Source: an uncultured bacterium (GTDB lineage: Bacteria > Krumholzibacteriota > Krumholzibacteriia > JAJRXK01). Taken from it: a stretch of 64,000 nucleotides of DNA. The position numbers were made by a program, and so were the translations under genes. The DNA lies in assembly GCA_964593155.1 (NCBI GenBank), contig CAZQHE010000002.1, forward strand, positions 5,231-69,230, read 5' to 3'. Under the pieces are notes generated by a model that ran no database searches, was not told where the DNA came from, and was given only the letters and a program-made list of their open reading frames with translations. Below are positions 6,296 through 56,082 of this stretch, one piece after another; the stretch's first letter is position 1, and every line of letters starts with the position of its first letter.

Positions 6296-7479
<1,184 letters not shown>

Positions 7480-9216: not shown

Positions 9217-9225
9217 GAGAAGACA

Positions 9226-9732
9226 GTGGAAGGGCCCATCTGGTTGTTCTTCGCGGGAATGGGTGTGCTCGGCGCGGCCGGGGTGGCCTTCTCGCGCAAC
9301 GTCCTGCACAGCGCCTTCGGCCTGTTGTTCGCGCTCTTCTCGGTGTGCGCCATGTACGCCATGCTGGGCGCCGACTACCTGGCCGCGACGCAGGTGATCG
9401 TGTACGTGGGCGGCATCCTCGTCCTGGTGGTCTTCGGGGTGATGATGACGCATCGGATCGAGGCCGAGCATCTCCGCGAGGAGATCGTCCAGCCCGTGGC
9501 GGCGGCGATCGCCGCGCTGGTGGTCTTCGGACTGTCGATCACGGTGATCGTGAACGAGGCCTGGCCGTTGCTCGATCCGCTTCCCGAGGTCACGCCGACC
9601 ACCAAGGAGATCGGGCGTGGCTTCCTGACCGACTTCCTGTATCCCTTCGAGTTCGCCAGCGTGCTGCTGCTCATGGCGATGATCGGAGCCGCCATGATCA
9701 CGCGCGAGCGCCGGTCGGAGGAGGACGAGTAG
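9226..9732 (+). CDS. nuoJ: NADH-quinone oxidoreductase subunit J
   Basis: 168 aa, GTG start with an AGGAGA Shine-Dalgarno. It is a hydrophobic ND6-like protein with …VYVGGILVLVVFGVMM…. Confidence 0.9.
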   Translation: MEGPIWLFFAGMGVLGAAGVAFSRNVLHSAFGLLFALFSVCAMYAMLGADYLAATQVIVYVGGILVLVVFGVMMTHRIEAEHLREEIVQPVAAAIAALVVFGLSITVIVNEAWPLLDPLPEVTPTTKEIGRGFLTDFLYPFEFASVLLLMAMIGAAMITRERRSEEDE

Positions 9733-9733
9733 C

Positions 9734-10045
9734 ATGGAGAGCGTCGGACTCACCCACTACCTCGTGCTCTCGGCCTTCTTCCTGGCCGCCGGGGTGTTCA
9801 CCATCCTCAGCCGTCGCAACGCCATCGTCATCCTGATGGGTGTCGAGCTGGTCCTGAACGCGGCCGCGCTGAACTTCGTGGCCTTCGGTCGTTACGTGGC
9901 CGGGGGCCTGACCGGCCAGCTCATGGCCGTGTTCGTGATCGTGATCGCTGCCGCCGAGGCCGCCGTGGCCCTGGCGATCGTGTTGGCCGTGTTCCGCAAC
10001 TTCAACACTGTGCACGTCGACCGGGTCGACCGGCTGCGGAACTGA
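9734..10045 (+). CDS. nuoK: NADH-quinone oxidoreductase subunit K
   Basis: 103 aa. The NuoK/ND4L signature is …LMGVELVLNAAALNFVAF…. Confidence 0.95.
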   Translation: MESVGLTHYLVLSAFFLAAGVFTILSRRNAIVILMGVELVLNAAALNFVAFGRYVAGGLTGQLMAVFVIVIAAAEAAVALAIVLAVFRNFNTVHVDRVDRLRN

Positions 10046-10064
10046 CCGGGGAGAGGGAAGTCAC

Positions 10065-12182: not shown

Positions 12183-12224
12183 CCGCCGCACGCGCGTCCT
12201 CGTTTCCGGAGAGGTGACGGGCCC

Positions 12225-13742: not shown

Positions 13743-13753
13743 GAGACGAGGGC

Positions 13754-15238: not shown

Positions 15239-15471
15239 ACCGCCCCGGAACCTCGCGGTGCTTCGGCAACGTGGTGAGCCGGCCCGCGCCCTGATGCGCG
15301 TGCATCGGTCTGAAGCGCGATCCCGCCACTTCTTCCACCGATTGTGTGACCGTCGGCGGCCCTGCGCTGGCCCGCCTCGTCGGCCGTGACCTAGAGTCGG
15401 CGCGCCGCCGTGTCCGCGACGACACCGGTGTCGCCGCTCCCGGTCATGCCATCCGCCGTGGAGGTTCCCCC

Positions 15472-18400: not shown

Positions 18401-18993
18401 AGATCACGTGGGCCCGCGTGCATCTCGACCTCACCCACACCTACCAGGGTGACCTGATCGTTCAACTGATCTCGCCGTCGGGAACCACGGTCGTCCTGCA
18501 CGATCGCAGCGGTGGGTCGGTCGACGACATCGTCGGCTGGTATCCCGATGCCCTGATGCCGTCCGAGAGCCTCGACGCGTTCGCCGGCGAGGACATGGCG
18601 GGGAGCTGGCGTCTGCACGTGAGCGACAACGCCGGTTACGACACCGGGACGTTGAACTCGTGGTGCCTGAACCTGGGCTACGCCGGCGGTACGGTCACCG
18701 CGGTGAAGGCGCCCCGGACCCTCGGCCTCGAGCGCAACGTTCCGAATCCCTTCAACCCCAGCACCACGATCGCGTTCTCGATTCCGCGGGAGGGCGAGGT
18801 CCGACTCACGGTCTACGACCTGCGTGGCCGCCGGGTGGCCACTCTGGTCGACACCGTGCTCCCGGCGGGCCCCCATCGCCGGACCTGGGACGGGTGCGAC
18901 GATCGCGGGCGTCCGCTGGCCAGTGGAACGTACTTCTATCGTCTGAACACGGGTGATCGCGCGTTGAGCCGGAAGATGCTGTTGTTGAAATAG
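15472..18993 (+). CDS. secreted peptidase C25 (gingipain-like) multidomain protein with proprotein-convertase P-domain and T9SS type-A C-terminal sorting domain
   Basis: ORF 15346..18993. The Met at 15472 has a GGAGG Shine-Dalgarno 8 nt upstream and a signal peptide MRRALSLVLVGLFLGVPVHAAEP. The catalytic His and Cys blocks align to RgpB (FVNYTAHGSRTSWADP…VIGNCCLTSTYDYAECFAESWLRA). A CarboxypepD_reg-like segment follows, then a P-domain (…TYQGDLIVQLISPSGTTVVLHDR…AGSWRLHVSDNAGYDTGTLNSWCLNL). The C-terminus NVPNPFNPSTTIAFSIP…VYDLRGRRV…WDGCDDRGRPLASGTYFYRL…KMLLLK is the T9SS sorting-domain signature. Confidence 0.85.
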   Translation: MRRALSLVLVGLFLGVPVHAAEPVVLDLGTDPALRVTSVSLDEVTVEVDVGRLRFFDVETPEGTFTQVTIPGFHRSREIGRPAVPVMNRLVAIPDGAEASVEVVEAKTRRVRLADVGVEHRLMPAQPSLSKSADPGPQPFHFDRAAYATPVTLDDLELAGMVEQGRLRALDFGRLEVRPVAYDPVREELEVAESLRLRVRFEGGRPGTTEDLLARTRSPFFDGVYGRFAGSKGLHESYPDVVRDEVTYVVVTPPEFEAGLEDFVAWKTERGFHVEVGVIGTPEVGSTTSSIQSYLHGLFHGATPQQPAPSFVLFVGDVAQCPTWTVSGNATDRPYCTVDGDGIPDMYYGRFSATNAAELQAIVDKTMTYDTLSMADPSYLGDVVLIAGADASWAPTHGNGTINYGTDNYFDAAHGIDADVHLYPQSQYDASLIVSEVGQGRGFVNYTAHGSRTSWADPSFTQSDIAGLQNVDEYGLVIGNCCLTSTYDYAECFAESWLRAPDRGAIGYIGGSNSTYWDEDVYWSVGSTASITADMPFENTGLGAYDGLFHDHGEDEDQWYVTQHAVAFCGNLAVQESGSSRTDYYWDIYNLMGDPSLPVHVGVPEANPVVHADNLVANQTSITVSAAVGSYVGVSQDGVLLGAGTVHDGATDVTIDYLQPLQAGVAARIVVTGQNLAPYVTDLPVAAPSEVTISPVELPSGVPTEVAVRVLRNDGVTPIPGVEVRVSDPMDYEVTAFTDSAGRATVDVDYPYGTALGVRGTHPTEGFLFDEQLTVTAAPLVEPDLTVSTEFGLVDLFGMNLQSTIVASSQTPGTTLVAYVPGLGRMESTSDTLVCTPTQGGEVRAFLLVSGHQIHAETFPVLTQGSVRGTVQLEGETDFSGVTVAASPGGASTVTAADGSYLLTGLEPGDHTLTAEREGFSVGTTPLTLGEGEHLDGVDFALSIVYEIEVCEDAALAIPDDFTRGVTSTMEVASAGEITWARVHLDLTHTYQGDLIVQLISPSGTTVVLHDRSGGSVDDIVGWYPDALMPSESLDAFAGEDMAGSWRLHVSDNAGYDTGTLNSWCLNLGYAGGTVTAVKAPRTLGLERNVPNPFNPSTTIAFSIPREGEVRLTVYDLRGRRVATLVDTVLPAGPHRRTWDGCDDRGRPLASGTYFYRLNTGDRALSRKMLLLK

Positions 18994-21539: not shown

Positions 21540-23762
21540 ATGAATCCACGCAAAGGCCGCTGTTCTCTCGTCATCGTCCTCTTGTTGCTCCTCGTGGTGC
21601 CCTCGGCGGCGCGTGGAGCGCGCCAGGTGGTCGCCGCCCGTGTCGACACGCCGCCGGCGCTCGACGGCTGGCTGCGCGAGCCGGTGTGGGACCGGACGCC
21701 GCCGACCGCCGACTTCGTACAGCAGCGCCCCGACACCGGTGCACCGTCGACGGCCAAGACGACGGTGCGTCTGCTCTTCGACGACGACGCGCTGTACGTG
21801 GGATTCCGCTGCGACGAGCCCCACTCGGCCGGGGTGCTGGGCCGCGCGCTGGGTCGTGACAGCGACTTCGCCGACGAGGACTACTTCCGGCTGGTGCTCG
21901 ACACCTTCGACGACGATCTGAGCGCCTTCGTCTTCACCGTGAATCCGAACGGCGCGCGCAGCGACCGTCTGGTGCGCAACGAGGGCGAGTACCAGAACCT
22001 CGACTGGGACGGTATCTGGTCGGTGCGCACGCAGGTGACCGCCGACGGGTGGCAGGGCGAGATGCGCGTTCCGTGGCGGACCCTGCGCTTCCCACGGCGC
22101 GACGCGCTGTCGATGGGGGTGAACTTCGAGCGCCAGCGCCGCCGGGTGAACGAGCAGAGCCACTGGTCGGCGGTGCCGCGGGAATTCACGGTGTACCGCG
22201 TGGGTCTGGCGGGACGGCTGGAGGGCCTGCGCGCGATCGACCCCGGACGGAACGTCGTCCTGCGCCCCTACGTGCTCGGCCGCGCCAGTCGTGGGGCCTC
22301 GGACGACTGGGACACCGATTCGGAGATCGGCCTCGACGCCAAGGTCGGTCTGGGACCGTCGCTCACCCTCGATCTCACCGTGAACACGGATTTCGCGCAG
22401 GTGGAGGTCGACGACCAGATCGTCAACGTCACGCGCTTCGACGTGGAATTCCCCGAGAAACGCGAATTCTTCCTCGAGAAGGCCAACCTGTTCCGCTTCG
22501 GGTCGGCGCGGAACCAACTCTTCTACAGTCGAACCATCGGCCTGGACGCCCGGGGCCGCACTCTGCCGATCGACTACGGAGCGCGACTGACCGGCCGCGT
22601 CGACGACACCGAGATCGGTGTCCTGGCGATCGAGCAGGACGGTGCACGCGGACTGCCCACGCGCCGCTTCGGCGTGGTGCGCCTGCGGCACGACGTCGGG
22701 GCGCGTTCGAGCGTGGGGCTCATGATCACGCACCGGAACTCCGCCGACGACGGCGAGATCGGCGAGCCCGACGACACCGCGATCGGCGTCGACGGCGACC
22801 TGAACCCGACCGATCGCCTGCTCGTGTCCGGGTACACGGCTGTCGACGAGCGCCGCGGCGCCGGCCCCGACGCCTTCACCTGGGGGCTGCGCGCGCGTTG
22901 GAGCCATCCCTCGTACCGCATCACGGCACTGCACGAGGCGGTGGGCAGCGACTACGACCCGGCGACCGGCTTCGTCAACCTGCGCAGCGCGCCGGGCGTG
23001 GGCGTGAACGTGTACGCGGCCGGGGTCACGCACGCCCCCGAGCCGAATCTCTCGTGGCTGCGACGCTTCGAGAACACGCTCGAGATCTACGCGCTCGACC
23101 GCCGCCGCGGTCCCCTCGAAGCGCGCTACCTGTTCGCCGGCAGCACCCTGGTGGGGCCATCGGAGGAGCGGGTCGGATTCTACTGGGAACGCGACTTCGA
23201 CCGCCTGTTCGGATTCGGGTTCCCGCTCGGACCCAATCCCGACGACACCTTCGACCTTCGCTTTTCCGCGGGCGAGTACACCTACGACTACTTCGGATTC
23301 GAACTACAGACCGACCCCAGTCACTGGTGGACGGCGCGCGTCGACGGCGTGGCGGGGGAGTTCTTCGACGGCACGCGTACGAACGTGAACACCCGTGTCG
23401 ACGTGCGCTTCGCACCGCACGTGGTGATCGGGGCCGAGACCGTCTCCGAGCGCATCGAGCGCGACGCCGAAGACGGCGGAAAACGCCGATTCAACAGCGA
23501 TCTGCTGCGTTTCCGGCTCGGCGTGGATCTGAACACCTCCTTCGGCGTGGACGTGTTCGCGCAGTACAACAGCGAACAGCGCCTGGGTCTGTCGCAGGTG
23601 CGCGCGCACTGGATCTTCGGTGACGAGAGCGATCTGTACCTGGTGTTCAACGACGCGCGCGACGCCGACATCGTCGTCGGCAGCGATCGCTTCCGCGTGG
23701 ATCTGGGCGACCGCCGACGCAACGACTGGACCCTGAAACTGTCGTACGCGCATCAACTCTGA
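21540..23762 (+). CDS. secreted CBM9-like / DUF5916-family outer-membrane-associated protein
   Basis: ORF 21348..23762. The Met at 21540 starts a signal peptide MNPRKGRCSLVIVLLLLLVVPSAARGA. A CBM9-like N-domain is present (…DGWLREPVWDRTPPTADFVQQRPDTGAPSTAKTTVRLLFDDDALYVGFRC…). It is followed by ~550 aa with alternating beta-strand-like periodicity. The DUF5916 assignment is from memory of that family's pattern. Confidence 0.7.
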   Translation: MNPRKGRCSLVIVLLLLLVVPSAARGARQVVAARVDTPPALDGWLREPVWDRTPPTADFVQQRPDTGAPSTAKTTVRLLFDDDALYVGFRCDEPHSAGVLGRALGRDSDFADEDYFRLVLDTFDDDLSAFVFTVNPNGARSDRLVRNEGEYQNLDWDGIWSVRTQVTADGWQGEMRVPWRTLRFPRRDALSMGVNFERQRRRVNEQSHWSAVPREFTVYRVGLAGRLEGLRAIDPGRNVVLRPYVLGRASRGASDDWDTDSEIGLDAKVGLGPSLTLDLTVNTDFAQVEVDDQIVNVTRFDVEFPEKREFFLEKANLFRFGSARNQLFYSRTIGLDARGRTLPIDYGARLTGRVDDTEIGVLAIEQDGARGLPTRRFGVVRLRHDVGARSSVGLMITHRNSADDGEIGEPDDTAIGVDGDLNPTDRLLVSGYTAVDERRGAGPDAFTWGLRARWSHPSYRITALHEAVGSDYDPATGFVNLRSAPGVGVNVYAAGVTHAPEPNLSWLRRFENTLEIYALDRRRGPLEARYLFAGSTLVGPSEERVGFYWERDFDRLFGFGFPLGPNPDDTFDLRFSAGEYTYDYFGFELQTDPSHWWTARVDGVAGEFFDGTRTNVNTRVDVRFAPHVVIGAETVSERIERDAEDGGKRRFNSDLLRFRLGVDLNTSFGVDVFAQYNSEQRLGLSQVRAHWIFGDESDLYLVFNDARDADIVVGSDRFRVDLGDRRRNDWTLKLSYAHQL

Positions 23763-23975
23763 CCCACGAAAACCGTTGTCGTCGGTCGGGATCATCTCTA
23801 TTGTTGGGGGCGTCCAGGTGAATCGCGACGGCGCTCGCACCCGAGTCGCATCACCGAGAGCACAGCCACGCGATGCAGCGCAGAGGAATTCGCCGGGAGC
23901 CCAGGCTGCAAGAGGGCTGCCGACATCGCGAAGCCTCTGACGCGCGAGCAGGGAAGACGGAAGCCCTGCGTCCTG

Positions 23976-24011
23976 CCGGCGGTCGGTCACGACCGCCGGC
24001 TTCTTTCTTCC
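23976..24011 (+). terminator. GC-rich hairpin (10-bp stem CCGGCGGTCG/CGACCGCCGG, loop GTCA) followed by CTTCTTTCTTCC tract
   Basis: A perfect inverted repeat at 23976..23999 is followed by a pyrimidine/T-rich run at 24000..24011. It lies in the 333-nt intergenic gap between the DUF5916 gene and sbcD. Confidence 0.4.
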
Positions 24012-24095
24012 CCCGGCGATCCTCCTGCGTCTTGGCGATCGCGCGGGCTGGTGATAGACATCGCGGGTCGACGCACTCTCCTCCGAGGTCGGTTC

Positions 24096-25289
24096 GTGCG
24101 AGCCCTCCGCTTCCTGCAGATCAGCGACGTGCACTTCGGCGCCCCGATGCGGGGTGGACGACTTCGTCTCGACGACGAGACGGCACGGACGCGCGCCCAG
24201 GAACGTCGGGCCGCGTTCGCGCGGGCCTTCGACGTGGTGCGCGATCGCGACCTCGACGGCGTGGTGATCCCCGGTGATCTGTTCGACGACGAATCGATCG
24301 ACACCGACACGCTGCGCTTCGTGGCGCACACCCTGCAGAGCATCGCACCGCGGCCGGTGTTCGTGGCCCCTGGCAACCACGATCCCTACGGCGGAGCGTC
24401 GCCGTATCGTACTGTCGGACAGGAAGATGCACGAGGGGTGCGTTGGCCCGACAACGTCCGTGTCTTCGCGCACGCGGACTTCCGCACGCTTGCCTGGCCG
24501 GGTCGCGACGACGTCTTCGTCACCGGCAGCGGTGTGGCGACGAACACCCCGGACACCCAGCGTCGCCTGGCACGGCGGGTCCCGCGCGAGGGTGAGGGAC
24601 GACACCTCCTGCTGTTCCACGGCAGCCGCGACGACGGTCACTTCCTGCAACCGCACAAGTCCACGCACCCCTTCTCGCGCGACGAACTCCTGGCGCAGGA
24701 CTTCGACTGGGTCGCGCTCGGTCACTACCACCAGCGCGCCGTGATCCTCGACGACGACGGCCGGGCGCGGGGCGCGTACGGAGGCTGCCTGATCGCGGGC
24801 GGTCTCGACGAGCGCGCCGAACGCGGAGCACTGGTGGTGGAACTCGAGGGCACATCGACACACGTCGAAGCGCTCCCGCTCGACCCACGCCAGGTGCACT
24901 CCGTCGATCTCGACGTGACCGGGGCCGACTTCGCCGAGGACCTGGCCGCGCGTCTCGACGCGGCACTGGAGCGTGCGGGCGTGGGGGCGCAGGATCTCGT
25001 GTTGGTGCGCGCGCACGGACGGCGCGCGCGGGGTGTCGATCTGCGCGCGCTCGACGGTCGCGCCGCCGAGGTGTTCCACCTGCGGATCGATGCGTCCGGC
25101 GTGCGGGCGGCGGTGGATCCCGTCGAGTTCCCTTCGCTCGAGGACGCGACCACCACCGAGGAGCGCTTCGTCGCCACCCTGCGCGACGATCCTCCCGCCG
25201 ACGTGCCCGAGGAACGCGTGCACCGTGCACTGCTGTACGGGCTCGACGCACTCGAACACGGGCGCCTCGACGCGCGCTACGAGGAGTGA
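24096..25289 (+). CDS. sbcD: DNA repair exonuclease SbcD/Mre11-like (calcineurin-type phosphoesterase)
   Basis: ORF 24051..25289. The GTG at 24096 (GAGG Shine-Dalgarno 8 nt upstream) gives MRALRFLQISDVHFG…, matching the SbcD N-terminus. The phosphoesterase motifs GDLFD, GNHD and GHYHQ are present. Confidence 0.85.
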   Translation: MRALRFLQISDVHFGAPMRGGRLRLDDETARTRAQERRAAFARAFDVVRDRDLDGVVIPGDLFDDESIDTDTLRFVAHTLQSIAPRPVFVAPGNHDPYGGASPYRTVGQEDARGVRWPDNVRVFAHADFRTLAWPGRDDVFVTGSGVATNTPDTQRRLARRVPREGEGRHLLLFHGSRDDGHFLQPHKSTHPFSRDELLAQDFDWVALGHYHQRAVILDDDGRARGAYGGCLIAGGLDERAERGALVVELEGTSTHVEALPLDPRQVHSVDLDVTGADFAEDLAARLDAALERAGVGAQDLVLVRAHGRRARGVDLRALDGRAAEVFHLRIDASGVRAAVDPVEFPSLEDATTTEERFVATLRDDPPADVPEERVHRALLYGLDALEHGRLDARYEE

Positions 25290-25292
25290 GCC

Positions 25293-28154
25293 GTGCGCCT
25301 GCTGCAGCTCGACATCCGCGGATTCGGCCGCCTGCGGGGGCGTGTGCACCTCGACGCCGGTGACGACGCGGTCGGACTGCTGCTCGAGCGCAACGAAGCC
25401 GGCAAGTCCACCCTGGCCGCGGCCCTGCTCGCCGCGCTCTACGGACTCGACGGCGACCGGCGGCGCTTCCGCGGCACGATCACCGAGCTCGACCGTTACC
25501 GTCCGTGGTCGGAGGGGCCCTACGGTCTCGCGCTCACGCTGCGGCACGAGGGCCACGAGTACACCGTCGACCGTGACTTCGCCCACGACACCGTGCGCGT
25601 GCTGCGCGGTGCGGAGGACGTGACCGACCGGTTCCGGCGGGGACACACCGTCGCCGTGGGTGAGACCTTCTCGGGACTTCGGCGCGAGCAGTTCACCGCG
25701 AGCGTGTTCGTCGGGCAGGGCGACGTGGTGTGGAACGACCCCGAGCGCCTGACCGAAGCCCTGCAGCGGGTGGCCGATTCGCAGTCGGGACGGTCGACCG
25801 TGGCCGCCGCCGTGCAGGCCCTCGACCACGCTCTCGATCGCTTCGACGGTCTCACCCTGGCCCAGCCGGGCAAGGTCGACACCGAGATCCAGCGCTGCGA
25901 GGACACGATCGCCGCCGCATCGGCCGAACTGAACGCACTCGAAGCCGGACGCGCGGCCCTCGACCGACCACTCGACGAACTCGAGAGCCTGCGCCGGGCC
26001 TCTGCCCAGGACGAGCAGCACCGCCGCCGCCTCCGCCTGCGCCGCCTGCGCACCGAACGCGATGCCGTGCGCAGGGTGCTCGACGACGACGCGGATCTCG
26101 GCGACGAGATCTCCGCGCTGCGCGCCGAACTCGACGACGCGGGCGAGCTCGACGCGCGGATCGCCGAGCACCGGACTCGTGTCCAGCAGCTGCGCCACGA
26201 GCACGAACTCCGCGGCCGCGACCTCGAGCGCGAGCGCGACGAACTGCGCACCGTCGATGCCGAGATCGAGGCGCAGGAGGCGGCCCTGGGGAACACCGGT
26301 CTCTCGCGGGTTCCCACCGCCGACGAGTTCGATCGTCTGCACGACGCCGCGCGCCGGCTCGCCGACGCCAGCGACGAACACGAGACCTACCTGCGTCGTC
26401 TCGACGACGATCGCCGTGCACTTCGCGAACTCGGCCACGAACTCGGCGAGGTCCTGTCGCTCGCGCGTGACTTCGAGGGTCTGAGCGACGCCGACCGCGT
26501 GCTGCTGGTGGGCCGTGCCGCACGCCGGAGCGAGCGCGACGACGCGCGCCGCGAGCACCGGAGCACCGTGGACCGCGCCGGCCGCACGCTGGAGCGGGTG
26601 GCGACGGCGCGGACGCGTCGCCGCCGCGTGGGATGGGCGGTTCTCGCGGTCGCCTTCGCGCTGACGGTGGCCGCCTTCGTCGCGGGTCCGCGCCTGCCGA
26701 TCCCACCCGGCGTGACCCTCGCGATTCCCGCGACGCTGGCCGTGGCCGGGGCGGTTGTGGCGCTCACCGCACCGCGGCACCGCGCGCACGAGGCGTCGGC
26801 GGCACGCGAGACCCTCGAGGACGCGGCCGCGGCGTATCGTCGGCTCGAGGCCGACGAGCGCGACGAGGAAGAGCGGTGGGTCGAACTCGCGGCACGTCTC
26901 GCGACCGATCCCGTCGACCTCGAGGACCGCTACGCGGTGTGGTGCCGCGTGGAGCACCGCGCCCGCAGTGCGTCGGTACACCGCGCCCGCGTCGACGAGT
27001 GCCGTGCGGCACGGATCCGTGCGCTCGAAGCACTGGGCACGTTCGAGGAGCTCTTCGGCGAGTCGGTCCTGGAGGTTCGCGTGGAGTCGTGGCTCGACCG
27101 CGCTCACGCCGCCCGCACCGAGGACGACCGCCTGGAGGCAGCACGAGGGCGCGCCGCGGCCCGTCGTGCGCGTCTCGAGGAACTCGAGGCCGGCCACCGC
27201 GAGCACCAGGCCACACTGCGCGAGGAACTCCGGCCCCTGGGGATCGATGTCGACGAGCTGCCCCTCGAACGCGCGCTGGCCGCCTTCGACCGCCTGGTCA
27301 CGGGGTGGCGTGCCCGTGAGGACGTACGCGAGCACCGCATCCCCCAGCTCGAACGACGCCGTCTCGACAGCGAGGAACGCGAGGCCCACACCCGCCGCCT
27401 CGAGACGATCGAGTCGGAGATCGACGGCCTGGCCGCCGAATTCGTGAGCGACGCCGACGTCGTGGCGCCGCTCGGTGCGACCGACTACGAGGACGCCCTG
27501 CGCGAACTCGACGAGCGCTCCCGGCGTCGACGCGCCGAAGACGAAGCGCTGCGCGACGAGACCCGCAGTTTCCTGCTCGACTACGAGTCACGGGCCCCCG
27601 ATCTGCGCGAGCGGATCGACACGCACGAGCGCGCGTTGCAGCGGGCGCGCGAGTTCCGCGCCGCCGTCGTTCTGGCGCGCGACACCCTGGCGCGGCTCGG
27701 ACAGCAGACCCACCGCGTGTGGGCCGCGTCGATCCAGCGCACCGCCGCCGACTTCCTGCGGCGCATGGGGAGCGCGGTCGACGAGATCCGTTTCGACGAG
27801 AACCTCGGCCTGCGGATCCGCCAGCACGATCGGGTGTTCACTGGCCACGAAGCGACGCGTATCCTGTCGGCGGGCGCGCTCGACGCGGTGTTCCTGGCCG
27901 CGCGGTTCGCCGTGGCCCGCTTCCTGGGCGGCGACTGCGATCCGCTGCCCCTGGTGCTCGACGATCCGCTCGCGAACGCCGACGACCGCCGCCTGCTCGA
28001 CACCCTGCGGTTGCTGATCGAAGCGGTCGCGCCGCAGCAGCAGGTCCTGCTCATGGCCTGTCAGCGGTCGCGCTACGACTGGGCGGTGTCCCGCCTCGAA
28101 CGGCCGGCGTCGTTGCGTACGCTCGAACTGTCCACCGACGGCGCTCCGCGCTGA
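25293..28154 (+). CDS. sbcC: SbcC/Rad50-like AAA ATPase with long coiled-coil
   Basis: 953 aa with the N-terminal Walker A (ERNEAGKSTLAAALLAALYG). The middle ~600 aa are heptad-like and Arg/Glu/Leu/Ala-rich. The C-terminal D-loop/Walker B is LPLVLDDPLANADDRRL. The start is 4 nt after the sbcD stop. Confidence 0.85.
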   Translation: MRLLQLDIRGFGRLRGRVHLDAGDDAVGLLLERNEAGKSTLAAALLAALYGLDGDRRRFRGTITELDRYRPWSEGPYGLALTLRHEGHEYTVDRDFAHDTVRVLRGAEDVTDRFRRGHTVAVGETFSGLRREQFTASVFVGQGDVVWNDPERLTEALQRVADSQSGRSTVAAAVQALDHALDRFDGLTLAQPGKVDTEIQRCEDTIAAASAELNALEAGRAALDRPLDELESLRRASAQDEQHRRRLRLRRLRTERDAVRRVLDDDADLGDEISALRAELDDAGELDARIAEHRTRVQQLRHEHELRGRDLERERDELRTVDAEIEAQEAALGNTGLSRVPTADEFDRLHDAARRLADASDEHETYLRRLDDDRRALRELGHELGEVLSLARDFEGLSDADRVLLVGRAARRSERDDARREHRSTVDRAGRTLERVATARTRRRRVGWAVLAVAFALTVAAFVAGPRLPIPPGVTLAIPATLAVAGAVVALTAPRHRAHEASAARETLEDAAAAYRRLEADERDEEERWVELAARLATDPVDLEDRYAVWCRVEHRARSASVHRARVDECRAARIRALEALGTFEELFGESVLEVRVESWLDRAHAARTEDDRLEAARGRAAARRARLEELEAGHREHQATLREELRPLGIDVDELPLERALAAFDRLVTGWRAREDVREHRIPQLERRRLDSEEREAHTRRLETIESEIDGLAAEFVSDADVVAPLGATDYEDALRELDERSRRRRAEDEALRDETRSFLLDYESRAPDLRERIDTHERALQRAREFRAAVVLARDTLARLGQQTHRVWAASIQRTAADFLRRMGSAVDEIRFDENLGLRIRQHDRVFTGHEATRILSAGALDAVFLAARFAVARFLGGDCDPLPLVLDDPLANADDRRLLDTLRLLIEAVAPQQQVLLMACQRSRYDWAVSRLERPASLRTLELSTDGAPR

Positions 28155-39930: not shown

Positions 39931-40986
39931 CTAGTCGACTCGAACGAGCGTGCCAACCCGCTCCTCGACGGTTCCGATCCGGGTGGCCTGGTCGTATCCG
40001 GCCTCGTGGAGTGCCCGGAGGGCTTCGTCGGCCCGCTCGGACGGGAGGCAGGCCACCAGTGGCCCGGATGTCTGCGGGTCGTGCAACAACTCCGCCCGTT
40101 CGGCCGGCAGATCGGCGGGGATGTCGACCCTTTCGACCGCGTGGCGCATGTTCGCCTGGGCACCTCCGCAGGTGAATCCCTCGGCCAGCATCCGGACCGC
40201 ACCGGGAAGCTCGGGAATCGCACGGTGGTCGAGGCGCAGGGTCACGTCGCTCGCCTGGGCCATCTCCGCGAGATGACCGCTCAGACCGAAGCCCGTGATG
40301 TCGGTCGCGGCACGGGCCCCGTGCGCGCGGGCGATCTCGGCGGCCGGGCCGTTCGAGGTCGTCATGCCCCGGACGAGCTCCGCGAACCACGGGTCCTCCT
40401 CGCCGAAGCGGCCGCTCTTGAGCGCGGTGGACAGTGCCGAGGTGCCGATCGCCTTGTTGATCAGCAGCACGTCGCCCGGCCGGGCCGCGTGGTTGGTGAG
40501 CAGCGCATCGGGATGGACCTCACCGACCACCGCCAGGCCGAACTTCAGTTCGGAGTCCTTGACCGTGTGTCCACCCAGCACCGGACACGACGACGCGAGC
40601 GCGGCCTCGCTGGCCCCGGCCAGCACGTCGCGCAGGGCCTCGGCGGGAATCTTCGGCGAGAAGCACGCCACGTTCAGGGCCATGAGCGGACGCGCGCCCA
40701 TGGCGTAGATGTCGCTGATCGAGTTCGTCGCGGCGATGCGGCCGAAGGTGAAGGGGTCGTCGACGATCGGCGTGATCACGTCGACCGTGAACACGATCGC
40801 GCGGTCCTCGCTCACACGGTAGACGGCGGCGTCGTCGGCGGGCTCGAGCCCGACGAGGACGCGGTCGTCGGTCGGGATCTTCGGCAATCCCTGCAGGATG
40901 ATCTCCAGGTCCCCCGGAGCGAGCTTGGCGGCTCAACCGGCGGCGCTGGCGTACTGCGTCAGACGGATCCGTTGCTCGTCACTCAT
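39931..40986 (-). CDS. selD: selenide, water dikinase (selenophosphate synthetase) SelD, selenocysteine-containing (in-frame UGA at complement 40933..40935)
   Basis: The ORF track gives only 39931..40887. Reading upstream on the - strand from ATG (complement 40984..40986) gives MSDEQRIRLTQYASAAG-TGA-AAKLAPGDLEIILQGLPKIPTDD… The TGA aligns with the catalytic Cys17 of E. coli SelD (RLTQYSHGAGCGCKISP) and the essential Lys follows. A good Shine-Dalgarno (AAGGGGGUG) precedes the ATG. The rest matches SelD throughout (…FGRIAATNSISDIYAMGARP…VLGGHTV…DITGFGLSGHL…). Confidence 0.85.
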
Positions 40987-48493: not shown

Positions 48494-49099
48494 TCAGTCG
48501 AACCAGTTCGCCACGCGATCCCAGAACGAGACCGAGCGTTCCACGCGCAGGGGCAGCGGGTCGGCGTTGCGCTTCGGCCAGACGTCACCCTGGTTGCACA
48601 GCTGCACGCCGAGTCCGTAGCGCTCGTGGGGGAGCGGCTCGAGCACGCCTTCGCGGAAGCGCGGATCGACCTCCACCTCGAAGCGGCCCAGGATCAGCGG
48701 GCGGTCCGGCGGTTGACGGTCGCAGCCGAGGAACAGGATCTCGGCGCCGTCGCCGAAGAGAACCTCCTTCTCCTGCAGACCTTCGAGTTGTTTCCACGTG
48801 ACCGGCCCGGCCGGCTCGAGGAAGTCGGGCATCTCGATCCGCAGCACCATGCCGCTGAAGTCGATCGCGGGCTCGCCCCGGATCCCGAGGTAGCAGGTGA
48901 AGCGCTCGGCGTCGGCATCCAGCCGGAGCTCGCGCGTGGTCCCCTCGGGATCGGCGTAGAGTCCGATGGTGTACTCGCCGACGTCGGGGTCGGGGTCGGC
49001 GCCGATCGTCTGGGCAGCAGCCGGAAGCACGCCGAGCGCGCAGGCGACGATCGCGCACACGTGCGTGACGAGGACTTGTCGGCCGGTTGGTGGATTCAT
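48494..49099 (-). CDS. secreted hypothetical protein
   Basis: Internal Met at 49099 of ORF 48494..50224 (201 aa). The signal peptide is MNPPTGRQVLVTHVCAIVACALGVLPAAAQT. It has an ATGA overlap with the upstream DUF2064 gene. Its stop is 3 nt before the rhomboid start. Confidence 0.5.
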   Translation of the reverse strand: MNPPTGRQVLVTHVCAIVACALGVLPAAAQTIGADPDPDVGEYTIGLYADPEGTTRELRLDADAERFTCYLGIRGEPAIDFSGMVLRIEMPDFLEPAGPVTWKQLEGLQEKEVLFGDGAEILFLGCDRQPPDRPLILGRFEVEVDPRFREGVLEPLPHERYGLGVQLCNQGDVWPKRNADPLPLRVERSVSFWDRVANWFD

Positions 49100-49831
49100 G
49101 ACGCGGGTAGGTCGGGAGCGGGACGGGGGTCGAGTTCGGAGCGCTCGCTCTGGACGAGCCAGGCCCGGGTGATCTTCGCGCGCCCGGGGTGCTCGCGCAA
49201 GCGGGTGGCAAGGGATCGCAGGTCGTCGGGGGTGTCGACGTCGAACCAGGCCCGGGCCTCGGACCGTTCCAGGCCGAGTGCGTCGACGCGGTTGCGCAGC
49301 GCTTCTCCCGTGTTCGGGCTGCTCCAGGGGAGATCGTCGAACATTCCGGGGACGTGGCGCCGCACCCCGATGCACCACACTCCGCCGTCGGCCGCGGCGC
49401 CGAGCACGACGTCGGCGCCGCCGGCGAGAGCGTCGAGCGCGGCGTCGAGATGGCCGGCCGGGAGATCGGGACTGTCGGTGCCCACCATCAGCAGCGGGAG
49501 CTCGTCCTGCTGGTCGGCTTCTTCCACCGCCGCGGCCAGGCGGTCGCCGAGATCGCCGGACGCCTGCCGGCTCCGGGCCAGACGGCCGGAGCGCACGGCG
49601 TGGTCCAACGTCACGGCGAAGTCCGACGAGGCGTAGTCCTCGGGGTCCGCTCCGTCGAGCCAAAGGCGGCAGTGGCGGGCCGCCGAACCGAGTGCGAGGT
49701 TCACGGTGTCCTCGACGAAGGCCTCGTACAGCGACGCGGCCGCGTCGGCCCCGAGCAACGGGATCAGGCGGGTCTTCGCCGCGCCGGGGCGCGGCTCCTT
49801 GGCGAAGATGCCGAGACAGGTGGGTGAACTC
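49096..49831 (-). CDS. DUF2064-family (PF09837-like) nucleotidyl/glycosyl-transferase-like protein
   Basis: Internal Met at 49831 of ORF 49096..50871 gives MSSPTCLGIFAKEPRPGAAKTRLIPLLGADAAASLYEAFVEDTV…LLMVGTDSPDLPAGHLDAALDAL…ADGGVWCIGV… This is the DUF2064 N-terminal FAK.P.PG.VKTRL and GTDSPDL signature. The family is from memory. Confidence 0.7.
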
Positions 49832-50284
49832 ATGCGCGAAACCGGGGAAGGGGATACGAACCGTCGCGCCCTTCCATGGTACCGCAAGCGGGTCGACTCG
49901 CTGCTCCGAATCACGGACGAGGCGCGTATCCGTCTGCGCGACGTCGCGCGCGTCCGCCGGCTCCCACGGCGGGCGCAGGTGCTGAACGCCTTCGAGGGCA
50001 CGCCCACCGTGTTCTGGATCGAGGACGGCCGGGTGCGGCTCTCGCGCTTCGAGACCGATGGCTCGGAAACCGCCATCGCGATCCTCGAGCGCGGCGAGGT
50101 CTTCGGTCTCGACACCGAGGCCGGGCCGGGCGAGGTGCGGGTGGCGACGGCCGAGGCGTTGGAGCCGAGCACGGTGCTGGCCTTCGATCGCGCCGCCCTC
50201 GACACGCTGAGACGCGACGAGCACCTGCGCGAGGCGACGCAGTCACTGTCGCCCCCGACCCCGTCGACGGGAGCCCGGGCTTGA
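49832..50284 (+). CDS. stand-alone cyclic-nucleotide-binding (CRP-like cNMP) domain protein
   Basis: In ORF 49706..50284. MRET… at ATG 49830..49832; an alternative is the Met at 49808. The cNMP-binding beta-roll is …TVFWIEDGRVRLSRFETDGSETAIAILERGEVFGLDTEAGPGEVRVATAEALEPSTVLAFDR… There is no HTH. Confidence 0.55.
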   Translation: MRETGEGDTNRRALPWYRKRVDSLLRITDEARIRLRDVARVRRLPRRAQVLNAFEGTPTVFWIEDGRVRLSRFETDGSETAIAILERGEVFGLDTEAGPGEVRVATAEALEPSTVLAFDRAALDTLRRDEHLREATQSLSPPTPSTGARA

Positions 50285-51015
50285 GCCGGGTCTTCGTGGT
50301 GATCCCCGCCCTCGACGAGGAAGCTTCGATCGGGCACGTGCTCGAGCCCGTGGTGGCGCAGCCGGACGTCGAGGTCGTGGTGTGCGACAACGGTTCGACC
50401 GACGCCACCCCCGCGGTCGCCCGGGCCCACGGGGCCACGGTGGTCCGCGACGAGCGCCGTGGCTACGGCCAGGCCTGCCTGACGGCCCTGGCCGAGGTCC
50501 GCACCCGACAGCCGCTCGACGACGACGTGGTCTGCTTCCTCGACGCCGACTTCAGTGACGATCCCACGCAGCTGCCCGAGATCGTCGGCCCGGTGGAGCG
50601 CGGCGAGGCCGACATGGTGATCGGATCGCGTGTGCTCGGCCGCCGCGAGGCGGGCGCCCTGCTCCCGCAGGCGCGGTGGGGGAACTGGCTGGCCACCCGT
50701 ACCATCGCCTGGATCACCGGGGTACGGTTCACCGACCTCGGTCCCTTCCGCGCCATCCGGTGGTCGACGCTGGAATCGGTGGGGATGGAGGACCGGGCCT
50801 ACGGATGGACGGTCGAGATGCAGCTGAAGGTGGCCGCCGCCGGGGCGCGCTGCGTCGAGGTCCCGGCCCACTACCGCAAGCGGATCGGACGCAGCAAGGT
50901 CACCGGCACGGTCCGCGGAACGGTCCTGGCCAGTGCGACGATCCTGTCCATCCTCGGTCGATGGGCCTGGCGTCGAGCGCGATCTCGCCTTGCCAATCCG
51001 GACCGATCGAACTAA
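50281..51015 (+). CDS. family-2 glycosyltransferase
   Basis: In ORF 49876..51015. The in-frame TTG at 50281 (a TTGA overlap with the cNMP gene stop) or the GTG at 50296 gives …SRVFVVIPALDEEASIGHVLEPVV…VVVCDNGSTDAT…CFLDADFSDDP… The upstream portion of the track ORF is Arg/Gly-rich junk. Confidence 0.75.
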   Translation: MSRVFVVIPALDEEASIGHVLEPVVAQPDVEVVVCDNGSTDATPAVARAHGATVVRDERRGYGQACLTALAEVRTRQPLDDDVVCFLDADFSDDPTQLPEIVGPVERGEADMVIGSRVLGRREAGALLPQARWGNWLATRTIAWITGVRFTDLGPFRAIRWSTLESVGMEDRAYGWTVEMQLKVAAAGARCVEVPAHYRKRIGRSKVTGTVRGTVLASATILSILGRWAWRRARSRLANPDRSN

Positions 51016-52352: not shown

Positions 52353-53312
52353 TCAGGGCGACGCGATCGTCATCGACGCGGCGGTCCCCTGCGCACTCCG
52401 CTCGGCCAGCATCTCCACGGCCTTCATCGCTCCCGTGGCGACGGCCGACAGGAAGTCGAGGGCCACGTCGAAGTCGTCCTCGAGCACGTCGAACAGCGCC
52501 TCGTGATTGCCGCGCAGCGTGGTGACGTCGGTCCGCGCGACCGGCGTGTACCACCGTTCGCCACGCGCCAGCGTCTCGAGATTGCCCAGCGGGTAACCGC
52601 GGCCCGCCTCGAAGGTGCCACCATCCGGGAGACGACACTCGACCTCGCCCTCGAGGATCACCAGCAGGTGATCGGCGGCCTCGCCCGGCTGCCAGAACTC
52701 GGTGCCCTGGGCCCAGCGTTCCTGGCGCATCGACGTCGCCATGAGCATGAGGGCCTCGAGTCCGAGGTTGCGGAAGATGTTCCCGCGTCGCAGCAGCACC
52801 AGCCGCTCGACCGCGTCGAGCGAACGCTTCGGCAGGCTGACGGCTTCTCCGGTCCAGGGCACGCGGCGCGATCCCGCCACGATCTGCGGCATGATCTGCA
52901 GATGGTACGCCGCGACGTTCCGCAGCATGTTCTGCAGCAGGCGGAAGTTCTCCTCGAGCGCGGCCAGGATGGCGTCGAGTTCGAAGGCCAGGGCCACCGT
53001 CTCGGTCGCCGCGCGGGCCTCGAAGTGCGGCTCCACTCTCGAGAGCGCGGGGATGATCCCCACGTTCTCGCCGCTGCCGCACGACACGATCTCGCGGCCG
53101 TGGCCGAACACCGCGATCCGTCCACTCACGATCACGAAGAAGCGATCCACGGGACGGCCCTCGCGCAGGACCAGGTCGCCGCGACGCAGGACGACCTCCT
53201 CGGCCTGGCGCGAGAGCACGGTCAGGTCACGCGTGGCGATGCCCTGCAACTGCGGCAGCGTGCGCAGGTACAGCAGGCGGTCGATCGGTCCGACGAAGCG
53301 GGGATCACTCAT
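52353..53312 (-). CDS. tandem cyclic-nucleotide-binding (2x cNMP) domain protein
   Basis: Internal Met at 53312 of ORF 52353..53357. There are two CAP-like beta-rolls (…VLRRGDLVLREGRPVDRFFVIVSGRIAVF…; …QPGEAADHLLVILEGEVECRLPDGG…). Its start overlaps the upstream transporter stop by 8 nt. Confidence 0.7.
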   Translation of the reverse strand: MSDPRFVGPIDRLLYLRTLPQLQGIATRDLTVLSRQAEEVVLRRGDLVLREGRPVDRFFVIVSGRIAVFGHGREIVSCGSGENVGIIPALSRVEPHFEARAATETVALAFELDAILAALEENFRLLQNMLRNVAAYHLQIMPQIVAGSRRVPWTGEAVSLPKRSLDAVERLVLLRRGNIFRNLGLEALMLMATSMRQERWAQGTEFWQPGEAADHLLVILEGEVECRLPDGGTFEAGRGYPLGNLETLARGERWYTPVARTDVTTLRGNHEALFDVLEDDFDVALDFLSAVATGAMKAVEMLAERSAQGTAASMTIASP

Positions 53313-56082
53313 GGCCGAGCAGCTCCGTCTCGGGTTGGTCGAGCAGGACCAGTGCACGTGCGACGACCTGCTGTTGCACCAGGGGTGGTTCGTCGCGCAG
53401 CGCCAGCAGCGCGTCGCGGAACGATTTCAGCCCGAGTTCGCCGATGTGGTGGATCGTGATGCAACGCATGCCCAGGCTCCCCTGTTCCAGGAACGAAGCG
53501 AGTGTCTCCTCGTAGGTCCAGGGGCGCGGCGTGTAGAAGGCCAGACCCAGCCGGAGACGCTCGTCGTCGGAGAGGTCGTCGACGAAGCCCAGCAGTCCGT
53601 CGCGCAGCGGCGGCTCGAGCGTGGCCGCGATCAACTCGTGGGCACTGGCGTGGTCCTCGGCGCGATCGCTCTCCAGGCCGTTGTAGATCCGCTGCCAGTC
53701 CTCCTCGGGGACCAACAGGTCGAGCAGACGGAACATGCGCTCGCGGGCGTGCGCCTCCTTGTGCTCGAGGGTGTGCAGGAGGAGTTCGTGCACCGCCGTC
53801 GCCCGGCGGGGATCCGAGCGCGCTCCCTCGCGCAGCGCGCCCCGCCAGTCGAGCAGACGGAAGGCCCCGGCCAGGGTCAGTTCGAGGGCCTTGCGCAGCG
53901 TGCGCCCGTCCAGTTCGAGGTCGCGATCGCGGCGGCGCAGGGCACCGAGACCGCGCAGGATCTTGAATCGCACCAGACCGTCGCGCACGGTCAACAGATG
54001 ACGCATGAGGATCGGCGCGGCGAATTCGGGTTCGAAACGCGAGATCGTGCGCGGGACGTGTCGGCGGACGTTCTGGGCCATGGACTCGTCGCCCAGCGCC
54101 CGGTCGAGTGCCTCCAGAGCGGCCTCGCCGATCGAGACCAGGGCCGACCGCGCCTCGCTCCGGACGTCGCGAACCGGGAGCATGCCGATCAACGGTTCGA
54201 TGAACTCCTCGCTGCCCACGGCGCGCATCGCGATCGCGGTCTCACGCCGTACCTCGCGGCTCTCCCTCTGCGCGAACTCGATCAGCAGCGACGTGTGGAT
54301 CCGGTGCGGTTGCTCCTGGATCGACAGGACCAGCGCCAGGGCCTCGTCGTCGTCGGCGTCCTTGGCGATCGTGCGCAGGACCGTGGCCGCGTCGTCGCCC
54401 TTGATCCAACCCGCTGCCACGAGCGTGACCAGGGCGGTGGCCCGCACCACCGGAGACGGGTCGTCGAGGTACACGGACAGCTGCCGGTTCACGTCGGGCG
54501 CGAGGATCGCGCGGGCCCGCAGCACGCCGGCGCGGATGACGGCGTCCTCGTGGTCGGCGATGCGTTCGAGGATCGGCAGGGCCTCTTCGCGTCGCGTCCG
54601 CGCGAACAGGTGCAGCGCGCGCGTGACCACCGCCTTCGACGGGTGGTACAGGATCAGCGCCGGGATCAGGTGCACGCGGTCCTGCTCGGCCAGCATGTCC
54701 ATCGCGGCCACGACCTCGGCGTCGTTCACGCTGTTCAACCGCTCGATCAACTTCTCGAGCGAGGCCAGGTCGAGCTCGGGGAACTCGACCTCGGACAACA
54801 CCTCGCGCTCGCTGAGCGTCGTCCGGAACAGATCGAGATAGTGCCGGCGGATGTCGCGGGCGAGGCGGACCCACGACACGCTCAGGGCGATCACGCCGGC
54901 GGCGAGCACCATCTCCGATCCCGGGAAGGCGACGACCACCAGGATCACCAGCGACGCCACCGCCTGCCCGCCGCGCTGTCCGAGCACGTCGACGAAGGTC
55001 TTCACCTGTTCGCGCACGGTGCGCGAGAGCGGTACGTACAGCGTCTCGATCGAGGTCCGGTGGAGCGAGTGCCGCAGCGATCCGTCGACCGCCTTCAGGG
55101 CCAGTGCGGGCACCAGCAGGATCAGCGGCGAGGTCGTGTAGACGATCATCAGCAGCCCCGCGCCGAGCGCCAGCAGCATGGGCGTCAAGCCGAGTACGCG
55201 GTTCAGTCCGAAACTGCGGAGCAGAACACTGACCAGCGTCAACTGGAACAGCAGCGACAGCAGGTTCAGCGCGAGGTAGGTGGTCGCGAAGAAGCTGGCC
55301 AGGTCGGTGCCCTCGAGCTGCCGGGCGACGATGCTCTTGAACAGGTAGTCGACGAAGGTCAGGGCGATCGTCGACACGACCACCAGACCCAGCAGTCTCT
55401 TCACGTACGGACGGTGCAGCACCGTGCGCAGCGCCTGCTTCCAGTGCAGGGCGTGCGAGGGGTGCCGGTGCTCGACGTCGCGACCGCGGGTCTCTTCGGC
55501 GGTGTGCAGCAGGGCCATGGGCAGCAGGCCGGTCAGGCCCAGGATCCCCGCGGCGAACAGCAGGAAGTGACGCGGGTCCACGACCTCACTCAGTCCTCGC
55601 GCCAGGCCGGAGCCGACGATGGCGCCCAGCACGCTGCCCGCGCCGATGATGGCGAACACACGCTTGGCCTGGGTGACCGTGAAGACGTCCTCGACCACCA
55701 GCCAGAAGCGTGTGACGACCATGGTCGCGAACACGCCGGCCCACACGTAAAGCAGGTAAAGGACCCACGGCGGTGAGTGCGCCCCGAGCAGCGCCCACAG
55801 CGCCACCGTGACCGCTCCCGATGCCAGGACCAGGGCGGCCAGCACCAGCCGGTTGCTACGCGCGATCGGATAGCGCGCCTGCCACTGCATGAGCCCGACC
55901 GAGGTCACCGCGATGAGCAGGTAGACCCAGGGAAGCTGCGAGGCGGGGAGCCGACCGAGGAACAGGGCGTCGCGGGCGGTCTCGAGCAGCGCGTGTCCGG
56001 CCAGGATGCCGAAGAGCGTGATCGTCGCCCCGAACACGAGGCGGCGTTCCTCGGGACGGACCGTCGCCTTCAGGTGGATCAT
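53305..56082 (-). CDS. fusion protein: 12-TM TLC-like (ATP/ADP-translocase/Npt-type MFS) transporter domain + C-terminal HEAT-repeat domain
   Basis: 925 aa. The first ~430 aa are polytopic (…LLIAVTSVGLMQWQARYPIA…VVTRFWLVVEDVFTVTQAKRVFAIIGAGSVLGAIVGSG…), resembling TLC/Npt nucleotide transporters. The rest is helical-repeat, HEAT-like (…LIPALILYHPSKAVVTRALHLFA…AVIRAGVLRARAIL…VVRATALVTLVAAG…). Confidence 0.7.
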   Translation of the reverse strand: MIHLKATVRPEERRLVFGATITLFGILAGHALLETARDALFLGRLPASQLPWVYLLIAVTSVGLMQWQARYPIARSNRLVLAALVLASGAVTVALWALLGAHSPPWVLYLLYVWAGVFATMVVTRFWLVVEDVFTVTQAKRVFAIIGAGSVLGAIVGSGLARGLSEVVDPRHFLLFAAGILGLTGLLPMALLHTAEETRGRDVEHRHPSHALHWKQALRTVLHRPYVKRLLGLVVVSTIALTFVDYLFKSIVARQLEGTDLASFFATTYLALNLLSLLFQLTLVSVLLRSFGLNRVLGLTPMLLALGAGLLMIVYTTSPLILLVPALALKAVDGSLRHSLHRTSIETLYVPLSRTVREQVKTFVDVLGQRGGQAVASLVILVVVAFPGSEMVLAAGVIALSVSWVRLARDIRRHYLDLFRTTLSEREVLSEVEFPELDLASLEKLIERLNSVNDAEVVAAMDMLAEQDRVHLIPALILYHPSKAVVTRALHLFARTRREEALPILERIADHEDAVIRAGVLRARAILAPDVNRQLSVYLDDPSPVVRATALVTLVAAGWIKGDDAATVLRTIAKDADDDEALALVLSIQEQPHRIHTSLLIEFAQRESREVRRETAIAMRAVGSEEFIEPLIGMLPVRDVRSEARSALVSIGEAALEALDRALGDESMAQNVRRHVPRTISRFEPEFAAPILMRHLLTVRDGLVRFKILRGLGALRRRDRDLELDGRTLRKALELTLAGAFRLLDWRGALREGARSDPRRATAVHELLLHTLEHKEAHARERMFRLLDLLVPEEDWQRIYNGLESDRAEDHASAHELIAATLEPPLRDGLLGFVDDLSDDERLRLGLAFYTPRPWTYEETLASFLEQGSLGMRCITIHHIGELGLKSFRDALLALRDEPPLVQQQVVARALVLLDQPETELLGHE

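Follow-up and report, generated by a model that had tools for sequence, protein, structure and literature searches.

What do a DUF2064-family transferase and a small family-2 glycosyltransferase (GT2) do together when their genes flank that of a stand-alone cyclic nucleotide monophosphate (cNMP)-binding protein, and is selenium involved? The genes concerned lie within a 64-kb stretch of DNA (69% GC; hereafter, the window) from an uncultured member of the Krumholzibacteriota (GenBank assembly GCA_964593155.1, contig CAZQHE010000002.1, forward-strand positions 5,231 to 69,230). An initial annotation of this stretch had assigned the two transferases to TIGR04282 and TIGR04283, a pair of families formerly named 'rSAM/selenodomain-associated transferases 1 and 2', and had raised a possible link with selenium, a selenocysteine (Sec)-encoding selD being in the vicinity. 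All three genes exist and encode the Pfam domains proposed for them (DUF2064, 89.7 bits; cNMP_binding, 45.9 bits; Glycos_transf_2, 84.9 bits). The system to which they belong is itself already known, although it is biochemically uncharacterised, and the window carries a variant of it that has neither arsenic nor selenium partners nearby. On balance, we judge it probable, if only just, that the locus encodes a conserved glycoconjugate module of two enzymes in a form that operates independently of ArsS, the radical-SAM enzyme with which these families are usually associated; the two enzymes would be the DUF2064 protein and the GT2, which we term GT2a.

The two transferases

The DUF2064 protein is a member of TIGR04282, albeit narrowly, scoring 145.7 bits against a curated NCBIfam cutoff of 134. 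It retains all 19 of the columns that are invariant in a 16-sequence alignment of the family, including G17, K20-T21-R22, D120-x-P122, D149-G-G151, W170 and D198-x-D200, which correspond to the motifs GxxKTRL, DxP, DGG, W and DxD. The possibility that it is instead a CofC-like guanylyltransferase was raised at the outset and can be discarded: on the model for CofC (2-phospho-L-lactate guanylyltransferase; TIGR03552), it scores 37.9 bits, against a cutoff of 105, and it is not a CofC orthologue. Its fold and its N-terminal G-x-x-K-T-R-L signature are nonetheless those of the CofC/MobA-like nucleotidyltransferases and of PDB entry 3cgx, a putative nucleotide-diphospho-sugar transferase that is the sole solved relative of the protein (E = 2.5e-19). 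We presume, therefore, that it is a nucleotidyl- or glycosyl-transferase with a CofC/MobA-like GT-A fold.

The second half of the proposed pairing did not survive. On TIGR04283, GT2a scores only 36.6 bits against a cutoff of 182, with the alignment restricted to residues 6–69, and its membership of that family was rejected. A proteobacterial locus used as a positive control (L009), which carries ArsS, an ArsM-like methyltransferase, a GT2 and DUF2064, gave scores of 442 bits for ArsS on TIGR04167, 262 bits for its GT2 on TIGR04283 and 206 bits for its DUF2064 protein on TIGR04282; the TIGR04283 domains of the fusion proteins described below score 271–293 bits. The best NCBIfam matches of GT2a are instead to AglJ (109.5 bits; cutoff 325) and a dolichyl-phosphate hexose transferase (76.4 bits; cutoff 375), and on the ArnC model it scores 22.7 bits against 529, such that it lies far below the cutoffs of all of the equivalog models.

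By sequence, GT2a has just weak matches in the PDB, all to GpgS, a soluble phosphoglycerate glycosyltransferase, and its structure was therefore predicted. The AlphaFold2 model has a predicted local distance difference test (pLDDT) score of 92.8, and its top Foldseek matches are to ArnC, DPMS and GtrB (template modelling scores 0.62–0.71), with GpgS next. In keeping with the Pfam match (PF00535), the model and these matches describe a GT2 domain of the GT-A fold with a DxD motif, and GT2a shares its DNGS...DAD motifs with the polyprenyl-phosphate GT2 enzymes (DPMS/DPM1, AglJ, ArnC, GtrB and PpgS). Comparison with the 80%-identical relative L003 gave a ratio of non-synonymous to synonymous substitution rates (dN/dS) of 0.12 for the GT2a gene; the value of 0.30 for the cNMP gene is on a par with 0.22 for DUF2064 and 0.33 for the gene of a secreted protein downstream of DUF2064. 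GT2a is a distinct and highly conserved GT2 that resembles the polyprenyl-phosphate glycosyltransferases.

Genomic context of the GT2a–DUF2064 pair

The company kept by DUF2064 was surveyed by tblastn in 160 further loci drawn from two scans, using a narrower DUF2064 alignment for the locus search, as the 16-sequence alignment was too diverse. The counts refer to the 80 DUF2064 loci that, after removal of redundancy, had 3 kb or more of flanking sequence on either side, a neighbour being a gene within 3 kb. A TIGR04283-type GT2 is a neighbour in 42 of the 80, ArsS in 26 and GT2a in 14, and 10 of the 14 GT2a loci are without both ArsS and a TIGR04283 member. A CRP-like gene lies within 3 kb in seven of these ten and in 1 of the other 70 loci; the seven represent approximately two independent lineages. 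A GT2a that is 38–57% identical to that of the window is found no more than 3 kb from DUF2064 in loci labelled Myxococcales/Sandaracinaceae (L034 and L063), Phycisphaerae (L083), Herpetosiphonaceae (L045), Alphaproteobacteria (L055), an unclassified bacterium (L073) and four metagenome contigs (L095, L121, L126 and L133); it also adjoins DUF2064 on shorter contigs from Verrucomicrobia (L079), Chloroflexales (L060) and a further source (L147).

In some of these loci the linkage is covalent. GT2a, DUF2064 and TIGR04283 domains form a single polypeptide in L073 (669 residues; 9278-11287), L083 (659 residues; 9326-11305) and L126 (717 residues; 5266-7419), the first two of which score 219 and 192 bits, respectively, on TIGR04282, and 293 and 271 bits on TIGR04283; in L079, GT2a and DUF2064 constitute one reading frame. 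In both L073 and L083, the fusion is the last gene of a co-directional cluster in which ArsS lies a few kilobases upstream, followed by DUF547, then a membrane protein, an oxidoreductase and a second membrane protein, the latter being a GT87-like GT-C transferase in L073 and without a Pfam match in L083. DUF547, oxidoreductase and GT-C-like genes also precede the fusion in L126, where no ArsS match was found in the stretch examined, and L133 has ArsS, GT2a, GT-C and DUF547 together with a DUF2064–TIGR04283 fusion. From the fusions, and from the adjacency in several phyla, it therefore follows that GT2a is a genuine partner of DUF2064 and the third member of the system, one that has had no name until now. 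The initial annotation was thus right that the DUF2064 protein and the small GT2 belong together, albeit with the GT2 placed in the wrong family.

Polyprenyl-phosphate sugar synthases usually work with a GT-C-type membrane transferase, and GT-C/GT87-like membrane glycosyltransferases adjoin GT2a in L011, L073, L126 and L133; these neighbours favour a lipid-linked sugar as the product of GT2a. Proteins of this type, approximately 30% identical to that of L073, were also observed within a few kilobases of DUF2064 in L103, L110, L112, L145, L152, L164, L167 and L169. The GT-C context of many DUF2064 loci that are without ArsS and TIGR04283 hints at a second ArsS-free setting for the family.

The nearest named homologues of the window proteins are from Krumholzibacteriota metagenome-assembled genomes (MAGs). 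DUF2064 is 80% identical to the window protein in L001–L003, 59% in L004, 50% in L006, 47% in L005 and L013, and 45% in L095, the metagenome scan having added at least this one close member of the clade. The order is kept in all of these relatives: GT2, a cNMP-binding or CRP-type gene and, divergently, DUF2064, a 200-residue protein and a rhomboid protease. In a neighbour-joining tree, which is rough, the window clade is sister to two Myxococcota loci, and all of its members and theirs combine GT2a with a CRP-type gene and are without ArsS. Past the GT2a–DUF2064 pair, both Myxococcota loci have a full-length CRP regulator and then a metallo-β-lactamase resembling class-II cNMP phosphodiesterases (L063, 10718-12141; L034, ~12150-13576), with an opposite-strand gene intervening in L034. 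DUF2064 and the rhomboid gene are also adjacent in L008/L015 (DUF2064 38% identical), and hence that link extends past the window clade. In this unclassified bacterium (L008/L015:8001-12050), DUF2064, scoring 197 bits on TIGR04282, is followed directly by the rhomboid gene, after which come genes for an SPL-family protein and an arylsulfotransferase; the vicinity also includes a TMEM260-like protein, but no ArsS within 8 kb.

Could the DUF2064 protein and GT2a nevertheless serve a dispersed arsenosugar pathway, working with ArsS, ArsM and a TIGR04283-type GT2 whose genes lie in other parts of the genome? The public label would then be correct: the DUF2064 protein exceeds the TIGR04282 cutoff, NCBI gives an 80%-identical homologue the name 'arsenosugar biosynthesis glycosyltransferase', and GT2a is found within the ArsS-carrying clusters of L073, L083 and L133. 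The window DUF2064 protein, however, belongs to a phylogenetically separate clade with borderline TIGR04282 scores (140–154 bits, versus 192–220 bits in ArsS-linked members), and the canonical clusters, those of the proteobacterial clade, have ArsS ~2 kb from DUF2064. A tblastn search of the 64-kb window (E<0.01) gave no match to ArsS, ArsM, a TIGR04283-type GT2, DUF547, a Pyr_redox (pyridine-nucleotide-disulfide) oxidoreductase or a GT-C-like protein, and no radical-SAM domain was seen in the window open reading frames (ORFs) picked for Pfam and NCBIfam scans, in agreement with the earlier observation that the window has no radical-SAM gene. Neither ArsS, ArsM nor TIGR04283 was present in six related loci (L001, L004, L005, L006, L013 and L095), and nor were DUF547 and Pyr_redox. 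Unlike the ArsS clusters, the window clade is tied to a gene of the CRP family, and its Krumholzibacteriota-type loci add a rhomboid protease and a cohesin-like protein. The 197 bits that L008 scores on TIGR04282, without ArsS within 8 kb, show that the model also recognises proteins outside ArsS settings. We regard the dispersed pathway as unlikely.

The proposal that selenium-linked glycosylation takes place here, with the transferases acting on a selenium-containing substrate by way of the nearby SelD, drew on two observations: the former family names and selD itself. The latter is genuine (Table 1), with an in-frame UGA, and is 8.1 kb away, close to the ~9 kb first estimated. The 'selenodomain' of the old names, however, is merely a Sec (or Cys) residue in ArsS, rather than an indication of selenium chemistry. 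Eight genes in other orientations or other transcription units separate selD from DUF2064, and no selenium-related gene was found in any of the surveyed DUF2064 loci. The substrate of ArsS is an arsenic compound: the enzyme adenosylates dimethylarsenite, and TIGR04282 and TIGR04283 have been renamed as 'arsenosugar biosynthesis' families for this reason (PMC13598754). With selD unlinked, ArsS missing from the window and family names that no longer imply selenium, the selenium connection is effectively refuted.

Several points weigh against our preferred reading, that the pair forms an ArsS-independent module. Within the clade, the neighbourhood is syntenic throughout over ~16 kb, with HSP20, Omp85, flippase, amine oxidase and MFS–HEAT genes collinear in L001–L006; as these surrounding genes are equally collinear, in-clade adjacency is weak evidence of coupling. 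The surveyed loci were not a random sample, as the 80 that most resembled the window clade were taken from each collection, and the distant GT2a orthologues of L011 and L012 have no DUF2064 nearby. With regard to the polyprenyl-phosphate enzymes, the Foldseek scores of GpgS are nearly equal to theirs, GpgS was also the only match in the PDB sequence search (weakly, and to the N-terminal part), and GT2a has no predicted transmembrane helices, but a single long C-terminal helix (residues 211–243). The absence of ArsS applies to the window and the six related loci. Lastly, no biochemical characterisation of any TIGR04282 or GT2a member was found in the searchable literature; searches on DUF2064, TIGR04282 and TIGR04283 returned no functional study, nor does that literature record an activity for 3cgx or for any DUF2064 protein, for which reason every statement made here about substrates is inferential.

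The first and third of these points are what would be expected were the arrangement simply inherited, with DUF2064, the cNMP protein and the GT2 engaged in unrelated processes; so, too, is the retention in L008 of DUF2064 and the rhomboid gene, without GT2a or CRP. Inheritance alone accounts poorly for the four or more loci in which GT2a is fused to DUF2064, for their adjacency in loci of several other phyla, for the recurrence of a CRP-like gene beside the pair in Myxococcota, or for the four lineages in which GT2a is translationally coupled to the cNMP gene. Synteny devoid of functional coupling is, to our minds, no more probable than a dispersed arsenosugar pathway, and we retain the interpretation in which the two transferases function together.

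The truncated CRP-family protein and the divergent start codons

The gene models are collected in Table 1. DUF2064 is on the minus strand, as originally described, although its 5' end is at 49833, rather than 49831. It heads the three-gene operon anticipated for it: an ATGA at 49096..49099 overlaps its stop codon with the start of the secreted-protein gene, and the rhomboid gene begins 3 nt past the stop of the latter. On the plus strand, the predicted cNMP–GT2 pair is present with its TTGA overlap, which joins the TTG start of GT2a to the TGA stop of the cNMP gene (the GT2, expected at ~245 residues, has 244); the corresponding 4-nt overlap reads GTGA in L003 and again TTGA in L004.

Table 1. 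Coordinates of the genes and of the start overlap discussed in the text (positions within the window)
Feature	Position	Strand	Remarks
DUF2064/TIGR04282-type GT-A-fold transferase, 245 aa	49096..49833	-	Heads minus-strand operon; Pfam and NCBIfam
Secreted protein, 201 aa, cohesin-like β-sandwich	48494..49099	-	Second gene of DUF2064 operon
Rhomboid intramembrane serine protease, 258 aa	47714..48490	-	Third gene of operon; Pfam Rhomboid 114.9 bits
cNMP-binding-fold protein, 150 aa	49832..50284	+	CRP/FNR-derived, without HTH; Pfam cNMP_binding 45.9 bits
GT2a, family-2 glycosyltransferase, 244 aa	50281..51015	+	TTG start; Pfam Glycos_transf_2 84.9 bits
CATG common to both divergent start codons	49831..49834		Read from sequence; 2-nt head-to-head overlap
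selD, Sec-encoding	39931..40986	-	TIGR00476 333 bits (cutoff 125); in-frame TGA 40933..40935, 'SAAG*AAKL'

The 150-residue protein comfortably exceeds the threshold of the cNMP_binding model (PF00027; 27.5 bits) and has no helix-turn-helix (HTH) domain according to Pfam: it terminates ~20 residues past the β-barrel, where an HTH_Crp_2 domain would otherwise follow. Its N-terminal β-barrel can be matched residue by residue with the homologous part of the orthologues of L005, L006 and L095, which are 232–235 residues in length and retain HTH_Crp_2, as does the CRP-family protein of L063; in an alignment of the orthologues, the HTH-less forms are those of the window, L003 and L004. This comparison shows the protein to be a CRP/FNR regulator minus its HTH. 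With most of the dimerisation helix deleted along with the HTH, DNA binding by this protein is impossible. The phosphate-binding cassette is also altered, reading FGL...RVA in the window protein and FGE...RTA in L063; the canonical cassette is FGE...R[ST]A, and the cAMP contacts Glu72 and Ser83 of Escherichia coli CRP are replaced by Leu and Val, respectively, in the window protein.

Is this gene merely a decaying pseudogene, with the start overlap an annotation artefact and the real product, if there is one, a 101-residue form? A public annotation of a near-identical MAG (L093:699-1004) does indeed begin the gene at a GTG corresponding to codon 50, codons 1–15 are weakly constrained, and dN/dS reaches ~0.6 over the C-terminal 20 codons. 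That GTG, however, is not conserved, being GTC in L003, and between the window and L003, the differences within codons 16–50 fall at codon positions 1, 2 and 3 in the ratio 4/3/14, a bias that marks this segment as coding. The overall dN/dS of the gene is accompanied by a value of ~0.23 for codons 16–130, indicative of purifying selection, and none of the orthologues contains a frameshift. Furthermore, a library-wide search recovered five clusters (at 50% identity) of HTH-less forms of 113–150 residues, all of which begin 2–5 residues ahead of a conserved W[YH]xKR motif (WYRKR in the window). A remnant in decay is, accordingly, distinctly improbable, and we treat the full 150-residue protein as the product. 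An apparent 378-residue cNMP-domain fusion of another relative (P0252) was also considered and rejected as an over-extended ORF call that runs antisense through DUF2064; both it and the 101-residue call in L093 look like the products of gene calling at high GC.

The starts of the cNMP gene and DUF2064 were said to share a CATG palindrome and to overlap by 2 nt. The overlap stands, with the site 2 nt further on than was given. For DUF2064, there is no in-frame start between the ATG and the conserved CLGIFAK, and none in the 11 codons that were read upstream. For the cNMP gene, there is none between the ATG at 49832 and WYRKR, and the in-frame starts further upstream (GTG 49819 and ATG 49807) would both enlarge the overlap. 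An identical CATG overlap arises from an independent gene call in L003. A 2-nt head-to-head overlap is, thus, the best reading of both starts that the sequences allow; the palindrome itself is a trivial outcome of any such overlap between two ATG codons. Spacers of 78, 76 and 43 nt take its place in L004, L005 and L006, respectively, and the overlap is thus a recent compaction. A Shine–Dalgarno-like AGGTGGGTGA stands ahead of the cNMP ATG, and there is no purine-rich stretch ahead of that of DUF2064. We found nothing to support the further suggestion that initiation of the two genes is mutually dependent. No convincing CRP-type palindrome was seen in the intergenic spacers of L005 and L006, and a promoter and terminator scan of 49500..50200 gave no match, although it is uninformative at 69% GC.

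Other features of the window were noted in passing. Scans of its entire length for tRNAs and Rfam families were empty, with neither a tRNA-Sec nor a riboswitch. Two further cNMP-binding domains are present in the neighbourhood, in a single protein (52353..53357, minus strand) whose gene overlaps the end of another (53305..56082, minus strand) that encodes a 925-residue MFS/TLC-type transporter fused to HEAT repeats; this gene pair is kept in L001 and L004–L006. A complex I (nuo) operon occupies 4409..15238 (plus strand), and the nuo operon of L008 is directly upstream of DUF2064, probably by coincidence. A gene at 15295..18993 (plus strand) encodes a 1232-residue gingipain-type Peptidase_C25 protein with a propeptide, CarboxypepD_reg and proprotein-convertase P domains, and a C-terminal FlgD_ig domain. 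Two long ORFs overlap on opposite strands (23304..27587, minus; 25290..28154, plus), both with coding-like GC content at third codon positions; weak AAA_23/AAA_27 matches are found for the plus-strand ORF only.

A proposed pathway and its significance

In the scheme that we favour, the DUF2064 protein and GT2a would act in one pathway, the product of which is probably a lipid-linked or phospho-linked sugar for glycosylation of the envelope. The closest structural relatives of GT2a (ArnC, DPMS, GtrB and AglJ) work at the inner membrane face, where they transfer a sugar to polyprenyl phosphate, and GT2a may do likewise. It is from these relatives and from the gene neighbourhoods that we infer the substrates, the polyprenyl-phosphate acceptor and the envelope role, together with any part that the truncated protein may play in regulation. 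In the Krumholzibacteriota lineage, the enzyme pair is split over two divergent operons, GT2a being co-translated with the CRP/FNR-derived ligand-binding protein, and DUF2064 with the secreted cohesin-like protein and the rhomboid protease. In the ancestor, the genes of the enzymes would have been separated by that of a CRP-type transcription factor of full length, presumably governing the divergent promoters; in the sub-lineage of the window, this regulator shed its DNA-binding domain while remaining under selection, and the intergenic spacer shrank until the start codons overlapped.

A more far-reaching proposal combines two ideas: that GT2a and DUF2064 are the core of an unrecognised and widespread pathway of lipid-linked glycosylation that ArsS clusters have merely recruited, and that the HTH-less remnant, coupled to GT2a, is a small-molecule-sensing subunit of the transferase, with post-translational control having replaced transcriptional control by CRP. 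Taken together, these are doubtful, if somewhat less so than the dispersed arsenosugar pathway discussed above. Were the core-pathway idea true, the 'arsenosugar' label would have been over-propagated to thousands of genes.

The findings also bear on how members of this family are annotated. Public pipelines label every TIGR04282 match as an 'arsenosugar biosynthesis glycosyltransferase', and the window clade passes that model with no arsenic machinery nearby; inferences about arsenic metabolism that are drawn from such annotations can, therefore, be wrong, and a published example of an inference of this kind exists. Moreover, the HTH-less CRP derivative provides a natural example of a transcription factor that has been cut down to its sensor domain and is still under selection. 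For the family as a whole, GT2a, often accompanied by a GT-C-like membrane transferase, gives a testable order of enzymes for a system that is so far uncharacterised.

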